A stretch of 64,000 bases of DNA from Naegleria gruberi (Eukaryota), in NCBI GenBank assembly GCA_000004985.1, contig GG738849.1. One strand, given 5' to 3'. The position numbers were made by a program, and so were the translations under genes. The notes below the pieces were generated by a model. It ran no database searches and had not been told where the DNA came from. It saw only the letters and a program-made list of their open reading frames with translations. Of this stretch, positions 10,378 to 39,867 are shown piece by piece (positions within the stretch are counted from its first letter, which is position 1; the number at the start of each line of letters is the position of its first letter).

Positions 10378-12877
10378 CTACAAGTAATATTGTTTCTTGT
10401 TGAGATTTTTGTGAGGACTTTTAGAAATGTTCGATTGACCATGTAAAAATGCTACCTTGTGAGCTAATATACAAGGTACAGGAACACTCGAAATTCCCAA
10501 ACGATTATAATACAAGTGACACAATTGGTACGATATATTCTGATAGAATACCTTATTAAATCCACTCCCATTTTCCAAAACCTTATACCTTGTTGGAGTT
10601 GCTGTTCCCTGAAACGAATCAACATGATGAGATTGAAGAAAGAATGACATTTCGTTTGGATCTGATGTCAGAATATCACCATCTAGAACTGTTCCTGGTT
10701 TCAAATTACCAAAATTGTTTCCATTTAGCCCAGCATATATTCTATTATTGATTCGTTTAAGTACAAGAATGAAATTGAGTGGAATAGAGTTGTATTCTTT
10801 GCAAACTTGTTGGATGGCTAATATCTCCTGATTGTAAATGTGATCTTCTTGCCCTGAACCTACACCATCTCTATAGAAAATAATATGTGTTGGAGAAGTT
10901 TTGTTCTCATTCATGAAATTCTCAATTGCATTCCTCATTAGATTTTTGATATTTTCAACCAACTCAACTCCTGGCTTCTGGACTTGGATTTGAGAATAGT
11001 ATGCGCATACCTTTGAATCGTAGGATGATACGAAACCAACGAGAGAGGATTTACTTCGATGGTAAACTTCACCTGAATGATTAACATCCATTCCGACAAT
11101 CATGGTATGTGGTTTCATTGGAATTGATGTCATCCAAGGAATTCCTCCAAGTTTAGCATTCATTTCAATTGTGATATTCTTCAAAATAGATGATTTTTTT
11201 TCAGAGATAGCAATGTTCCTCTCAGTAATGCATTGGCTAGGAATTCCCATATCTACAATGGTTTTTTCTTTCAAGGTATGGTATTCGGTACTTGTTTTGT
11301 TTTTAGTTATCATGAGAATGAATGAGATTGGGTAAGAATTTCTAATAGTATCAGTGAGATCTTTTTTTGAAACATGAGGAACATATTGTTGAAAGACATA
11401 GTTCATATTGGATGTTTCTAAATTCATTTGAGAACAAAACTGTTGCAACTTGTTGCAAAAGTCAACCAAATCTTTTGATTTTGTACCTTGATGAAGAACC
11501 AATACGCGTTCAAGAGATTTGCATTCGAACATGTTACTATTATTTTCAATTTTGAACATTCCTCTTTCTTTTTCAATTTTAACTTTTCCTCCAATTTTAA
11601 TGGAACAATCTTCAAGTGATTCCGTTTGCACTTGAATCATTTTTGGGACAATAGATATACCCTACTTATCCAGCTCTAATTTGAACTCTGAATGTTCCAA
11701 ACATTCGCGTTGATTGTTTAAAGTTTCTCTAATTCTGTCATTTGGTGGTTTTTTAGTGACAGAGGCAATTTTCTGCATTGTGGTAAAATTACTTCTCATA
11801 TCCTGACTTATTCCTGTCAATAGACACAACGAAGGAATATAGTATTCAACCTTTCCATTCCTCTTGTTAATATGTTTAAGTAAGGGTTGTTTCAAATCAA
11901 CGTCTTCACCATATTGTGTATTGTAATATTCTGCGAATGTAATTTCCTTTCCTTGAAAATTGAATGTTGACACAGGACTCATATCAAATTCAACACTTTC
12001 AATATAAATAGTTTTCTTTCTGTAAGTCAAGTAAACAATAGAATTTCCAAATTCTCTCTTGATTTTCGTTTGGGCAGAACGTTCTCCAAACTGTTCAATA
12101 ATCTTTTTCATTTGGCTTAAAACAGTATCTGTTCTCATAGTTTTATAAATTGGCTCAACTAGGAGAGCAAGGCCTTTAGAGGTGGTACAGGTTGAGCTTA
12201 GAGTTCCTCCCAATATTTGAAGCCCACAATCATGAATAGTTGTTTTGGTCTCTTCATTGTAAAAGTTTCTTCCAATTCTTGTTAGATTCAACTTGGCTTG
12301 AGCGTTCTTAAGGACAGAGTTGACGAATTGTACAAAGTCCTTTCCAGAATTTGAAACAGTAATGGTTGTTGCCAGCGTGATTGAAACAGTGTACACAATA
12401 TTTCCAATAGAACACGTCTTTTCTAAGTGTTTCTTTTGAGGTGGAAGAATTGAGTTGAGAGAGTATAAAATTGACCCACTCTGTAAGAAGTCAATTAGAA
12501 AGTCACTTAAAGCCTGCTTTACAATCCTATTAGCAAGGTATTTGTTTTCAATTTGCGGACTAATGTTAACATGGTACTGATAAATTGAAGTGTGCTTTCA
12601 ATTCAATTGGGAACATGTTGATTACATCCTTTCCCTTTCCCAAATTAAAATAATCAACAACTGGAATTTGGGACAAGGGTTGGCTAGGTGAATTTGAGGA
12701 GAATTGATTTGTTTTCTTATGATGTTGGTTGTGTGGCTTCTTGTCAGAGTTATAGGCTTTGTACTTGGTTCCTTGTGATAACATTTTTTCTTGTTGTGTT
12801 TTCTTCCATTTTGCAATTCCCAACCCAAAAATAACAATGTTGGGAAGTCTGGAAGATATGTTGAGTTGGGAAAGCAA
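10378..12877 (-). CDS. AGO: Argonaute/Piwi-family protein (N, PAZ, MID, PIWI), reading frame interrupted twice
   Basis: ORF 10378..11640 contains MID plus PIWI (LGGIPW, IVGMDVNH, IIFYRDGVGSGQ, PVPCILAHKVAF, i.e. an RDG/H catalytic signature). ORF 11662..12396 and its upstream open frame to ~12560 contain L1/PAZ (LCLLTGISQDMRSNF, VTKKPPNDRIRETL) and the N-domain motif SIYQYHVNISPQ. ORF 12566..12877 gives the extreme N-terminus (GKGKDVINMFPIELKAH). The pieces are co-linear in Argonaute order but separated by (i) a +1 frameshift at an A-run near 12590 and (ii) a single in-frame TAG at 11662-11664, with the frame otherwise continuous across it. The start is probably the ATG near 12784. Confidence 0.75.
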
Positions 12878-30877: not shown

Positions 30878-32824
30878 GTGCCGAAGAACATATCAAAATA
30901 TTGGAATCAATACCGTATTCAAATCATCTTAGCCACAATTTTATCATTACAAAGAAGCTCCATTGATGCAGAATTGTATGTGAAGGATCCATCATCAATG
31001 ATTTATGTATCAAAAGATGATGATTTGAAAAAACTTTCACCTCTGTCCATCCAATTAATTTTGGGAACCATAAGGCTTGTGAGTTGTTGGAATATATGAA
31101 GAATGTAAAAATGGATGCAATAATATTCCTAGTATTGATAACATTTTGCACAGAAAAAAACTACTCATGGAAGGAATTGATATGCATAAAAAGATCATGG
31201 AATATAAGATAGAATCCTTAAAGGTTGACAATGCACTGATGAACTTTTATACGAAATGTGAAATGCCAGATGAAGCATTAGAAATTTTTGACCACCTCAA
31301 AAGTGAAAAGAAACCAATTGATATTATAACATGGACTTGTACTATTCAAGCTTACATGTCCAAAAATCAAGTTTCAAAAGCTATGTCCTTACTCTCAGAA
31401 ATTCAATTATATCAAACCCCTGACCCAATATTGTTTTCAACAGTATTACATATTTGTGCTGAAAATAGGTTGATTGAAGAAGGACAGGAAATTCATCAAA
31501 GAATTAACAAATTGAAAAAGCAGAATATCATTTTAGACAATGCACTGATGAATTTTTATACGAAATGTGGAATGCCAGAAAAAGCATTAGAAATATTTGA
31601 AAAACTCAAAAGTGAAAAGAAGCCAATGGAGGTCATGATATGGAACTGTGCAATTCAAGCTCTTGGTGAACAAAAGAAGGCCATTGAGGCATTTTCTCTT
31701 TTCAAAGAAATGGAAAGTAATAGCATAATTCCAACTGAGATTACATTTAATATCTTGTTAAATATTTGTGCTGAAAATAAGTTGATTGAGGAAAGGACAG
31801 GAAATTCATCAAAGAATCAAAAAATTGAAAAAGCAGAATATCATTTTAGACAATGCATTGATGAATTTTTATACTAAATGTAAAATGCCAGATGAAGCAT
31901 TAGAAATATTTGAACAACTCAAAAATGAAAAGAAACCAATTGATATTATAACATGGACTTGTGCTATTCAAGCTCTTGTACAAAAGAAATGCATTGATGA
32001 GGCATTGGATTTACTTGAAACAAATGGCATCCAAGTCGACGAAGTGATTTATGTTGTACTTTTGACTGCATGTGCAAACGATGTGTCAATAGAAAAAGGT
32101 GAGCATGTTATCAAACTAATAGAATCGTCTGGAATGCTCACAGACCATATTATGTACGGAGCTGTTGTAAACTTTTATGCCAAAATTGGAAATATTCAAA
32201 AAGCTCTGTATTTTTTCAATGAATATGATGGCCCTCCTGAAAGTCTTTAATGATGTGGAAAGAGCTGAGAGAGCATTTAACATTTTATTAGAGCTCGATA
32301 AGGAGCAAGCAACTCATTATGTTCTAATGTCGCATGTGTACCTTCAAAGTGATCAACCAGAAAAAGCAAAAGAAATAAGGGAATTGATGAAAAAAAATGA
32401 GGTACAAAAGACACCTGGCATTACTACAATTGAAATTAATGGCAAAACTTATCATTTTTACTACAATGACGAAAGCCACCCCAAAAAGGAGGAAATATTT
32501 CAAGAATTGGACAAGTTATGCCAAGAAATGGAGCTCGCAGGCTATGTTCCAGACACGAGATGGGTTACTAAAACGGATGCCAATGATGAAGAAACAAAGA
32601 AACATTTACTTTCAAGGCATTCTGAAAAAATTGCATTATCATTTGCTTTCATTTCCCTTCCACCTGGATCACCAATAACAATACGAAATAATCTGAGAAT
32701 GTGTGGAGATTGTCACACAGCAACAAAGTTTATATCAAAAATCAGGAAGTGTGAAATTACGGTTAGAGATGCCAGTAGATATCATCACTTTAAGGATGGA
32801 AAGTGCAGCTGTGGAGACTTTTAA
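30878..32824 (+). CDS. PPR-E-DYW protein (plant-type DYW deaminase-domain PPR), frame disrupted by at least 3 single-nucleotide indels
   Basis: ORF 32177..32824 has an E-motif plus a complete DYW domain (HSEKIALSFAFI, NLRMCGDCHTATKFISKIRKCEITVRDASRYHHFKDGKCSCGDF). ORFs 31146..31877 and 31786..32250 hold PPR repeats (DNALMNFYTKCxMPxxALEIFxxLKxEKKP). They overlap in different frames. The shifts sit at A7 (near 31155), gaggaaagg (near 31790) and T6 (near 32208). An upstream ORF 30878..31099 and a third frame carry further repeat-like sequence. Confidence 0.7.
31215..31985 (+). repeat. Internal tandem nucleotide repeat (3 copies, period ~315-320 nt) inside the PPR-DYW gene
   Basis: gacaatgca[c/t]tgatgaa[c/t]ttttatac[g/t]aaatgt[g/a][a/g]aatgccaga... 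recurs at ~31215, ~31535 and ~31849. Copies 1 and 3 are nearly identical over >120 nt. Confidence 0.8.
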
Positions 32825-34862: not shown

Positions 34863-36078
34863 TTAGAGAAAAGTTGGATTGGCAGTTGTAATGGATGGTT
34901 CCTCTGTTGATGTAGTTCCTTCCAATTGAGAATAGGTTCCGACATTACCCTCCCTTCTCTTCCCATATTCATCTAATACATTGTGAGCTACCAATACAGC
35001 ATCTCTGTCATAGGTTTCATAATCGAGTGGTCTTCTTCTCACAGTGGCTGAAGTAAATCTCGACTTGACATTAGAGACACCTGAAGTACCCTCATGTTTT
35101 GTGAGAGCTCCTGTATTTTGTTCGGCGATACTCTTTCTGAATGCAATTTTCACTTCTGGATCCAATTCTTCGATACGATGAATTTTACCATCTCTCATGT
35201 AGACAACTCTGTCAGCTGCATTTTTCAAGTTAGGGTCGTGAGTAACCATGACCATTGTAATTCCATCTTCCTGATTGAGTTTGATGAGTAGATCCATAAC
35301 ATTAAGGGTATTTTTTGTATCCAAGTCACCACTATAAATCCATATCAGGTTTTCAGGTTTAGAATATTAGTCAATTCAATGTTAAAGTTAAATTAGAAAA
35401 TGTTAGAAAATTCTAAATAAATGAAATACATACGTTGGTTCATCTAAAAGTAAAATTTCTGGGTGATTAGAAATGGCTCTGGCAATTGTGACACGCTGTT
35501 GTTCACCTCCTGACAATTGATTAGGAGAGTGATCGAAACGATGTCCCATTCCAACTTTTTCTAACAACTTTTTAGCTCTTTCTCTTCTTGTTGATTTACT
35601 CACATTTCCTTGTAAAATCATTGGCATTTCCACATTTTCCAAAGCAGACATTGTTGATAATAAGTTAAAAGTTTGAAATACAAATCCCATTCTAGCCAAT
35701 CTAATATTGGCCAATGTTTCATCCTTTGTATTTGAAGTAACACGTTCTCCACAAATTGTCAAGTGACCCTTTGTTGGTTTATCAATAGTTCCAATAATAT
35801 TCAACATGGAGGTTTTACCACCTAAATGTGTGATGAAGATGTGTTGTTGATAATATTATTAATATTATTTATCACAATTATTATTATCATCATCATATCA
35901 TTAAATACACTACCTCCTGAAGTTCCGTAAATAACAAGAAATTCTCCTCTTTTCACTTTTAAATTAACTCCTCTCAAGGCAGGAACACCTTCAATACCTA
36001 ACAAGTAGGTTTTTTGAATATTATCCAATTCTATTATATAATCAGTTGTATCAACTTCTCCGACTTGTTTGAAGAGAC
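34863..36078 (-). CDS. Bacterial-type ABC transporter ATP-binding protein (LolD/MacB/FtsE-like NBD, ABCH-like), at least 3 exons, with C-terminal extension
   Basis: Exon A is 35915..~36078 (IIELDNIQKTYLLGIEGVPALRGVNLKVKRGEFLVIYGTSGG, Walker A split by the intron). Intron 35823..35914 is 92 nt (GTAGTG...TTTAG, phase 1). Exon B is 35434..35822 (GKTSMLNIIG, Q-loop, LSGGEQQRVTIARA, ILLLDEPT). Intron 35342..35433 is 92 nt (GTATGT...TTATAG, phase 2). Exon C is 34863..35341 (GDLDTKNTLNVMDLLIKL...ITMVMVTHD, then a ~130-aa non-ABC tail). No ATG lies upstream in frame, so a further 5' exon is possible. No TMD is attached. Confidence 0.75.
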
Positions 36079-36361
36079 TAAATTATTCGAAATATTATAT
36101 AAATTCATATTACGATCCAATTAAAATCACATACTTTTCAAATCCCTTGTTAAAGTCCTTCTCCTCCGTATTTTTCATAATGTTGATGGATATGTTTTTA
36201 ATGATGATGGATAATGATGATTATCACTGTGGTAGAGGTCTTTTTTTTAATTGATGATTGTGACGATTCTTGCTATTGAGCGCATATTCAACTCCGCTTC
36301 TAACATAACAATTAAATTTACTTTACAATATATTAATATATATTAAATTTTTAATCATTTA

Positions 36362-36756
36362 CAGCACGTTTACTTCAAATTTGACGCGTTTTTTGAAAGA
36401 AAATAAATTATTTAGAAAAAATTTTGTTGTTCTTCTGTTGTCAAATCCAAAATAAGCATTTCAATAGAACAACACCTAACCACTCGTTCTTACTCATTTC
36501 TACATATTTTTGAGAATGCTGCCACCCCAAGGGGTATGTCAATGCGAGGATTCATAATTTGAAGTCAGATTTCAAAACTACCTTAATTCCATCGAGAAAT
36601 TAGCATTTTGTTGAATAAAATATTATCGTTACAGATTCTTTTCAAATGGAGTTGAGTTTACTTGCCAAATCAAAATTGAAAGATGAAATACTTTAAATTT
36701 TAAAAAAAACAATTTTAATTTCCCCAAATCTTGTCAAACTTGAAGTAAACGTGCTG
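36362..36756. mobile_element. MITE-like non-autonomous DNA transposon (395 bp, 24-bp terminal inverted repeats, TA target-site duplication)
   Basis: The left end is cagcacgtttacttcaaatttgac (36362..36385). The right end 36733..36756 is its reverse complement with 1 mismatch (gtcaaacttgaagtaaacgtgctg). Both ends are immediately flanked by TA (36360-36361 and 36757-36758). The interior is AT-rich with no ORF. Confidence 0.6.
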
Positions 36757-36863
36757 TACAATTCAATAATTTAAACTTGATGTAAGAAAACAATACAATA
36801 GAAACAACAACGGAAGAAAAAGTGAAAGTGTCCAAATCTCCAACAAGACAACTTAAAAAAATT

Positions 36864-38048
36864 ATGATGCACAATTCAAAGACCCAACCATTCTCCATGA
36901 TGGGTCACACACCACTATCATCGGAGAGGAGGAAATATCGAAGAATGGAACAAATTATAAAACATCTTATACCTTTTGCAACTATTAAAAGTAGTAGTAG
37001 TATTGAAGAAAATAATTATTGTACAACAAGTGTAAATAATAATAGAAAATGTGAAAATAATAATCAAATGATGGAAATATTACAATTTTTAATAAGACAC
37101 ATTCTTGTTACTAAAAGGAATAATAAGGATTCTATCAATCAATTAAATATAATCCTACAAAAATATATTCAACAAACGAATGGGGATTTTAAAAAGTATT
37201 TACCAATCGGAATTATTGCAGGACTGATATGTGCAAACAAATATAATCAAAATAATAGTACTATATCGAATAGATTTAATATTGTAAAAAACATTTTTAG
37301 TAACAGTGCTGGAATTTTAAAAGATAACAATATTGCAGTCACAATTCATCATTTGAGTATGATTGAAATTTTAATTGCCATTTCAATTATTGTTACATTT
37401 TCTGGACTTACAGGAGCTGTGCTTGCACAAGTTTACGAAGAAAGTCGTGTGAGTAATGCCTTGTTAGATTTGGCAAAATTACAGGAAGGACTAGTTCTTT
37501 ATTTCACAAGACATGGTAAATATCCACTTTCACTTGAGGATTTATTAGAAGGAGGCGAGTTGAATAAGGTTCCAAAAGATCCTTGGGGAACAGATTACCT
37601 CTATGTCCCTCACCTCGATTGGAATCGTCTTAATAGAATTTTACTCACCACAACAACAAGCAATAGTGGAAATAATTCTACTTCACAACAACAATTAACA
37701 TATTTCAATGAAGTATTGAAGAGAATGGAAACTGTTCTGATAACATTACCTGGAGGTGTCACACCCATGTCATTACTAGCAATTGCCAATGAACAACCTT
37801 TCTGTATTTGTGTGGGAACAAAGATACCTCGTTTCCCAAGCAAGATTGATGTTGATGTATCGAGAGAACGTATCAGATATGTGGCCAATTTGATGAAAAT
37901 GTCTATGGAGAGAAGTAGTGTTGCTGGAAGTGTTCAATCCAATAATCAACAAGGTGTCACCTCAATAATGAATCAAATTACTGAATTGAATGCCAGAATT
38001 AAGAATATTTTAAATGTTACCAGACAAGCATCAGGTGGTGGAGAATAA
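36864..38048 (+). CDS. GspG: Type II secretion system major pseudopilin GspG homolog (mitochondrial T2SS-derived system) with long N- and C-terminal extensions
   Basis: The pseudopilin core is SMIEILIAISIIVTFSGLTGAVLAQVYEESRVSNALLDLAKLQEGLVLYFTRHGKYPLSLEDLLEGGELNKVPKDPWGTDYLYVP. This is an N-terminal hydrophobic helix with Glu at about +5, followed by the GspG-specific KxPKDPWGxxY motif. A ~180-aa basic N-terminal extension precedes it. The ORF-track ORF starts at a GTG at 36822. The first ATG is at 36864. Confidence 0.8.
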   Translation: MMHNSKTQPFSMMGHTPLSSERRKYRRMEQIIKHLIPFATIKSSSSIEENNYCTTSVNNNRKCENNNQMMEILQFLIRHILVTKRNNKDSINQLNIILQKYIQQTNGDFKKYLPIGIIAGLICANKYNQNNSTISNRFNIVKNIFSNSAGILKDNNIAVTIHHLSMIEILIAISIIVTFSGLTGAVLAQVYEESRVSNALLDLAKLQEGLVLYFTRHGKYPLSLEDLLEGGELNKVPKDPWGTDYLYVPHLDWNRLNRILLTTTTSNSGNNSTSQQQLTYFNEVLKRMETVLITLPGGVTPMSLLAIANEQPFCICVGTKIPRFPSKIDVDVSRERIRYVANLMKMSMERSSVAGSVQSNNQQGVTSIMNQITELNARIKNILNVTRQASGGGE

Positions 38049-38196
38049 ATTATTACTGTTTCATTCAATTAAATTGCAATTCACTACATTGATCAAAGTT
38101 TAAACAACTTCATTGCTGCAATAATGAAATAGCAGCAATCTAGATTCTTAAAAAACAAATAACGGATGTGCATACATTATTTTTAATGAAGAAAAA

Positions 38197-39867
38197 ATGT
38201 CTCGCAAAAAGGAACCTGTTGTCGAAGGACTTTCTGCTGCCGAAGCAAAAGTAAGAGCTTCCAGCGAAATTGTAAAGGAATTATTAAAAGCCTATGATAG
38301 TAATGAAACAGTTGTGATGGCAAAAGTCAGAGCACGTATTTCACGTAAATATAAATTAAAAACAGGACCAAAATTAGTAGAAATTATTGCAGCCATTCCG
38401 GAGGAACATAAATCAAAATTATTACCACTCTTGAAGGCCAAACCAATCCGTACAGCCAGTGGTATTGCTGTTGTTGCTGTAATGTGTAAACCTCACAGAT
38501 GTCCTCATATTGCCATGACAGGAAATGTTTGTTTATATTGTCCTGGTGGTCCTGACTCTGATTTTGAATACTCTACACAATCTTATACAGGTTATGAACC
38601 TACTAGTATGAGAGCTATTAGAGCTCGTTATAACCCATATCTTCAAACTAGAAATCGTATTGATCAATTGAAGAGACTTGGTCACGATTGTGATAAAGTT
38701 GAATTCATCATCATGGGTGGTACATTTATGAGTTTGGAAAAGGAATATCGTGATGAATTTATTAGAAATTTACATGATGCTCTCTCCGGTCACACCAGTT
38801 CAAGTGTCGAAGAAGCAATCAGATATAGTGAACAAAGCAAGCAAAAGTGTATTGGTATTACTATTGAAACAAGACCTGATTATTGTTTAAAGCCACACAT
38901 TTCTAATTTATTGGAATATGGTTGTACCAGACTTGAAATTGGTGTTCAATCTATTTATGAAGATATTGCTCGTGACACAAATCGTGGTCACACTGTTGCT
39001 TCTGTTAAACGTTCTTTCACATTGGCAAAGGATCAAGGTTACAAAATTGTTGCTCATATGATGCCTGACTTGCCAAACTCTGACATGGAAAGAGATATTC
39101 TTGGATTTATTGAATATTTTGAAAATCCTGCATTTAGAACTGATGGTCTTAAACTTTATCCAACATTGGTTATTAGAGGTACAGGATTGTATGAACTGTG
39201 GAAGACAGGACAATACAAGAATTATTCACCTGATTCATTGGTTGACTTGGTTGCTAAAATCATGTCACTTGTTCCTCCATGGACAAGAGTTTACCGTATT
39301 CAACGTGATATTCCAATGCCTCTTGTTACAAGTGGTGTTGAAAAGGGTAACTTGAGAGAATTGGCTTTGGCTAGAATGAAAGATTTGGGTTTGAAATGTC
39401 GTGATGTCAGAACTAGAGAAGTTGGTATTCAATCTATTCACACTAAGATTATTCCTGATGAAGTTGAACTCATTAGAAGGGATTATTGTGCTCAAGATGG
39501 TTGGGAAACTTTCCTTGCTTATGAAGATGCTGCTCAAGATATTTTAATTGGTTTATTACGTTTGAGAAAATGTACTCAAACTGATACTACTTTCCGTAAG
39601 GAATTGAAGAATGACCAAATTGCCCAAGCAAGTATTGTAAGAGAATTACACGTTTATGGTTCTGTTGTTCCTGTTCGTGCCAGAGATCCAACTAAATTCC
39701 AACACAAGGGTTATGGTACATTACTCATGGAAGAAGCTGAAAGAATTGCCAGAGAAGAACATGGCAGTCAAAAACTCCTAGTTATCAGTGGTGTTGGTAC
39801 TAGACATTATTATAGAAAATTAGGCTATGAATTGGATGGTCCATATATGAGTAAGATGCTTGTGTAA
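38197..39867 (+). CDS. ELP3: Elongator complex protein 3 (radical-SAM / GNAT tRNA modification enzyme)
   Basis: 556 aa, single exon, near-identical to metazoan ELP3 over long stretches ([89 protein letters not shown]). Confidence 0.95.

Follow-up and report, generated by a model that had tools for sequence, protein, structure and literature searches.

A probable non-autonomous DNA element flanked by TA upstream of GspG in Naegleria gruberi and an allele without it in a sibling strain

TA targeting, short terminal repeats and CAG termini are together the hallmark of the IS630-Tc1-mariner group of DNA transposons. The transposases of this group target TA. Known termini include CAGTGC... in Tc1, CAGTTGAAG... 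in Sleeping Beauty and CAGG... in Tigger. The plant MITE Stowaway has the repeat consensus CTCCCTCCGT.... Submariner MITEs are reportedly common to Acanthamoeba and pandoraviruses. ISL2EU elements also make 2-bp duplications (Repbase classification), and a duplication of this length is not exclusive to Tc1/mariner elements.

The transposable-element content of N. gruberi is very low, at 0.28% (bioRxiv 10.64898/2026.06.24.734286). Young elements of both classes are methylated in this organism (PMC12344493). Its Harbinger and MuDRF elements have been deposited in Repbase (PMC3164196). The literature search retrieved no N. gruberi Tc1/mariner sequence. The family reported here is undescribed in the literature searched, including the supplements of two Tc1/mariner surveys, and may already be in Repbase.

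We analyzed a 64-kb stretch of nuclear DNA of the amoeboflagellate N. gruberi, called the window below. It contains a 395-bp segment bounded by 24-nt inverted repeats in the spacer between a divergent ABC-type ATPase gene and the gene for GspG. We consider it a probable N. gruberi non-autonomous class II element that was inserted at a TA, with the TA duplicated on insertion. The features of the locus are as follows.

34863..36070, minus strand: divergent ABC-type ATPase gene with introns (Pfam ABC_tran; colinear with contig L017 over 36070-33670)
36360..36361, no strand: left copy of the probable TA target-site duplication (direct reading; single TA in the empty allele on contig L015)
36362..36385, plus strand: left terminal inverted repeat, CAGCACGTTTACTTCAAATTTGAC (exact match, 0 expected by chance)
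36386..36732, no strand: internal AT-rich non-coding body, 347 bp (six-frame stops, protein and Rfam searches)
36733..36756, minus strand: right terminal inverted repeat, GTCAAACTTGAAGTAAACGTGCTG, with 1 mismatch, A to G at position 18
36757..36758, no strand: right copy of the probable TA target-site duplication (direct reading and alignment with L015)
36761..36764, no strand: 4-nt ATTC difference directly right of the second TA (window CAATTCAATAAT, L015 CAAATAAT)
36864..38048, plus strand: GspG, mitochondrial T2SS pseudopilin (Pfam T2SSG; 100% identity to XP_002681672, NAEGRDRAFT_63068, P0001)

Anatomy of the element and its locus

The order read from the window is ...AATCATT-TA-CAGCACGTTTACTTCAAATTTGAC-(347 bp)-GTCAAACTTGAAGTAAACGTGCTG-TA-CAATTC.... 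The 24-mer has two sites in the 64 kb, one per strand, with 0 and 1 mismatch. It was matched in none of 100 dinucleotide-preserving shuffles. The terminal pair is the strongest inverted repeat of the whole window. Between the TAs the element measures 395 bp, and its GC content is 0.30. Its ends are symmetric (CAG...CTG), and this symmetry and the TA on both sides fix its boundaries. Past the TA and the 24 nt of repeat (26 nt), the arms pair only at about the level expected of AT-rich DNA. The arm of "64 nt, 70%" returned by the repeat search is mostly extension noise through AT-rich DNA.

The element does not appear to encode a protein. Stops occur in all six frames, and the longest stop-free stretch is 48 codons. 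No protein resembling it was found with a joined six-frame query (E <=10) among the best 8000 candidates of 5.8 billion proteins. In 35800-37300, no covariance model of Rfam 15 matched with an E-value of 1 or less. MITEs are expected to carry terminal inverted repeats of at least about 10 bp and to be shorter than about 800 bp without coding capacity; the repeats here are 24 nt with 1 mismatch, and the element is 395 bp and non-coding. A preliminary description of the locus had reported 24-bp inverted repeats with one mismatch around an AT-rich segment of 395 bp without an ORF, with TA at both ends. The coordinates, the shuffles and the six-frame stops agree with the first part, and the TAs are read at 36360-61 and 36757-58.

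The sequence AACTTGATGTAAG is found at 36774..36786 (plus strand), 16 nt outside the element. It matches the inner part of the right repeat at 12 of 13 positions and is found in both strains (window and L015). From its letters, it is possibly a chance match or the relic of an older repeat end.

Neither the 64-kb window (blastn with word size 7, nhmmer) nor 47 kb from other Naegleria loci, a total of 111 kb beside a genome of 41 Mb, contained a second copy of the element. No transposase, integrase or reverse-transcriptase domain was found in 37 window ORFs scanned against Pfam. The earlier remark that no other mobile element is evident in the window is thus borne out. Exact scans for the repeat were also made in larger collections. 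Among 241 million metagenome records there was one match, in a GC-rich bacterial gene, which was judged to be chance. Among 2.9 million viral contigs there were ten matches of 18 nt and two of 23 nt, with no inverted partner; these were likewise judged to be chance. Both 23-nt matches (L018:1773-1795 and L020:6089-6111) lie in related IMG/VR contigs with a GC content of 0.43, in a phage ORF reading ...ESTFTSNLT.... There was no match in 185,579 prokaryote genomes.

The gene to the right encodes the mitochondrial GspG of N. gruberi, which is part of a T2SS-derived apparatus (Horváthová et al. 2021, PMC8134430). XP_002681672 is an N. gruberi predicted protein encoded on an 850-kb scaffold, and its 100% identity is counted from the ATG at 36864. 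The GspG ORF has a long N-terminal extension, which is typical of heterolobosean Gsp proteins. The preliminary description had placed the element about 65 bp from this ORF and about 280 bp from the 5' end of the ABC gene. Both distances stand approximately for the ORF with a GTG start (36822-38048), which begins 64 bp from the element, and for the 5' exon of the ABC gene, which lies about 290 bp to the left. The first does not hold for the annotated ATG of GspG, which is 105 bp away. The bacterial promoter context implied there does not apply, as the host is a eukaryote, the locus is nuclear and the ABC gene contains introns.

At the 5' end of the ABC gene (36029-36120, minus strand), the frame reading ...IIELDNIQKTY... 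meets a stop upstream without an intervening ATG, and the ATG at about 36110 belongs to a different frame. It is likely that the gene starts elsewhere or that a very short intron interrupts its 5' end.

The other eukaryotic-type genes in the window encode a B9 ciliary protein, a copine, a DYW-type PPR protein, eIF4E, Argonaute, a cyclophilin and a P450. One further ORF appears to be Elp3-like, as read from its translation. The DYW-type PPR gene (31146-32824) encodes E, E+ and DYW deaminase domains in three overlapping ORFs in different frames. Within this interval a 186-nt unit occurs three times at a spacing of about 310 nt, and its translations resemble PPR blocks. Outside plants, DYW proteins are rare. 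The breaks in frame in this gene suggest introns, frameshifts or RNA-level correction. The Argonaute gene (10378-12396, minus strand) encodes PAZ and Piwi domains in two ORFs, presumably split by an intron. It encodes small-RNA machinery and is a possible transposon control system.

The empty site in a sibling strain

The 90%-identity cluster of the GspG protein contained one other member, P0011. It is encoded on L015, a k=127 contig of 2844 bp from the ENA metagenome assembly ERZ929261/ERR1078381 (PRJEB11402). L015:48-2844 aligns with window positions 36765-39553 at 98.8% identity over 2806 bp. L015:1-47 aligns with window positions 36309-36363, the left flank of the element, and these 47 nt are all of the left flank that L015 contains. 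The 16 nt beside the junction (TTTTTAATCATTTACA) are identical in L015 and unique within the window. The start of L015 scored 18.5 when modeled as left flank and -2 when modeled as a diverged copy of the element in place. Among all 74-nt slices of the window, the left flank alone scored as high as 18.5.

The junction in L015 reads CATT-TA-CAAATAATTT. It contains one TA, and the element is absent. This empty site with a single TA makes the element a presence/absence polymorphism. The two strains differ by about 1.2%, and the edges of the polymorphic segment coincide with the repeat ends. The preliminary description had proposed a MITE-like element with a TA duplication between the ABC ATPase gene and GspG, and the sibling allele without the element supports it. 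A conserved copy without TA flanks in the relatives would have counted against that proposal; the orthologous locus on L015, with one TA and no element, is the opposite case. The target-site duplication of a MITE should be single in an empty site, and the TA is single in L015, with the caveat of a 4-nt indel nearby.

Two further contigs from the same sample were compared with the window. L017 was 98.8% identical and L016 was 99.1% identical. From these values, the sample holds a genuine sibling strain of N. gruberi. L017 covers the ABC side and ends at the equivalent of window position 36070, short of the junction. The contigs of this strain in ERZ929261 are 2-3 kb long and are a public source of natural variation, including SNPs, many intergenic indels and the insertion polymorphism described here. 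The literature search retrieved no paper citing PRJEB11402.

Three more distant loci were unusable as an empty-site test. These were L002 (N. lovaniensis), L003 (Logan Naegleria) and L001 (a metagenome Naegleria), which have other upstream neighbors and no alignable intergenic DNA. The GspG relative on L001 has 84% amino-acid identity. In N. lovaniensis, about 10 kb downstream of GspG, a 775-aa gene has a DUF7869 domain (L002:21201-21434) and may be transposon-related.

The two alleles differ in size by 401 nt, versus 397 for a clean empty site. L015 is therefore not a textbook-clean empty site, owing to the extra 4 nt (ATTC) at the junction. This difference arose either as an independent indel or as a scar of repair. 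Aligned with L015, the 55 nt of left flank contain four gaps; further indels are one of 2 nt, 50 nt to the right, and one of 3 nt at the 5' end of the ORF. The spacer is thus very indel-rich between the strains, which makes an unrelated 4-nt indel plausible.

Mechanism and alternative explanations

The event was most likely an insertion in the NEG-M lineage after the strains split. Both repeats would be bound by a DDE/D transposase, most likely one of the IS630-Tc1-mariner group, whose gene would lie elsewhere in the genome. The element would be cut from a donor site and then integrated at a TA, which would be doubled through gap repair after integration. Such an insertion would have added about 400 bp between GspG and all sequence upstream of its position -105. 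It would also have doubled the intergenic spacer between the ABC gene and GspG.

The same element may instead have been present in the ancestor of both strains and been excised in the sibling, where imprecise repair would have taken away one TA together with 4 flanking nucleotides. We consider this unlikely. One excision-plus-repair event would cover both changes, and the 4-nt difference does lie immediately beside the junction. However, L015 contains one TA and nothing that is necessarily derived from the element, whereas Tc1/mariner scars usually keep both TAs and 2-3 terminal element nucleotides. In the footprint comparison, which covers one sequence, L015 reads TA-CA-AATAAT and the canonical scar is TA, 2-3 terminal nt and TA; a virgin site with a 4-nt indel is the better fit to this single sequence. 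Indels are also so frequent in this spacer that an unrelated 4-nt indel is not unlikely. Insertion and excision alike imply a mobile element.

A local inverted duplication that was never a transposon, and that was lost in the sibling by hairpin-stimulated slippage between TACA direct repeats, is a good deal less probable. TACA is present at both junctions (36360-63 and 36757-60). The segment, when single-stranded, folds into a terminal stem (z = -3.75), and the 111 kb of Naegleria DNA contained no other copy. However, the arms of an inverted duplication are expected to match over their full length. Here the match is confined to the terminal 24-26 nt and stops abruptly, as expected of transposase-binding ends. 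The repeat is also bounded exactly by TA on each side, and the alleles differ by 401 nt, not by the 397 of a clean TACA-to-TACA deletion.

It is hardly credible that the element was inserted spuriously during assembly of the N. gruberi reference scaffold or that L015 begins with a chimeric join. The junction of L015 does lie close to a contig end, with 47 nt to its left. Within the window, however, the true left flank is the single match of those 47 nt, and an assembly artefact would not yield the perfect architecture of repeat plus TA. Assembly at k = 127 demands reads that span the junction, and with this k repeats of 26 nt cannot explain a graph collapse there. Equally remote is a structured non-coding RNA gene or hairpin small-RNA locus that is not mobile: a terminal stem is predicted and the Argonaute gene in the same window points to small-RNA pathways in the organism, but the segment has no Rfam family match at E up to 1, its pairing is restricted to the 26-nt ends and it is dispensable in the sibling strain.

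Significance and comparison with known systems

The allele without the element is direct evidence of mobility: cut-and-paste DNA transposons have moved in the N. gruberi species complex after the separation of strains that differ by about 1%. The genome is usually called nearly free of transposable elements. With the insertion, a mitochondrial T2SS gene has a natural variant in its promoter region. The 24-nt repeat can serve directly as a probe for the family and for its transposase. We give little credence to a stronger claim, that the family is recently or currently active in N. gruberi and that the strain-specific insertion 105 bp upstream of GspG may alter the expression of GspG or the ABC gene. 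If true, it would provide natural regulatory variants of a still enigmatic mitochondrial secretion system. An active endogenous transposon, if present, may be of use in a protist that is short of good genetic tools. The importance of the locus is modest, and nothing here would surprise a specialist.

The flanks do not fit some families. A PIF/Harbinger (Tourist-like) MITE was rejected, since its 3-bp TWA duplication is not found here (TTA on the left versus TAC on the right). Target duplications longer than 3 bp are likewise ruled out by the flanks. ISL2EU-type membership is an alternative. The element resembles ISL2EU-type and Harbinger-related elements in its short repeats and very short target duplication.

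The superfamily is most likely IS630-Tc1-mariner, judging from the DNA. Three features make up the basis for this assignment: the TA duplication, the short repeats and the CAG termini. The TA target-site duplication of this group is read at both ends of the element. Like the autonomous Tc1/pogo-type elements (Tc1, Sleeping Beauty, pogo/Tigger), it has a TA target and termini that start with CAG. It would also share with them cut-and-paste movement by a repeat-binding DDE/D transposase. Unlike them, it lacks a transposase gene, and its length is one-fourth to one-sixth of theirs. Its movement would depend on a transposase from another element.

The preliminary description had named the Tc1/mariner/Stowaway type. 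The TA duplication, the short repeats and the CAG termini speak for the Tc1/mariner part. The Stowaway part survives as an analogy, since the repeat here begins CAGCACGTTTAC... where the plant consensus has CTCCCTCCGT, and the architecture alone is alike.

The closest described systems are the MITEs derived from Tc1/mariner elements. Unlike the known ones, this element has a heterolobosean host, and no autonomous partner or family member was seen in the 111 kb of Naegleria DNA. Like them, it is a few hundred bp long and ORF-less, with an AT-rich body and short terminal inverted repeats. It also resembles them in its insertion at a TA with the TA duplicated, its position near genes and its presence/absence polymorphism between strains. 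As a small cut-and-paste element with TA as its target, it is an ordinary kind of feature; such elements are little described in this organism.
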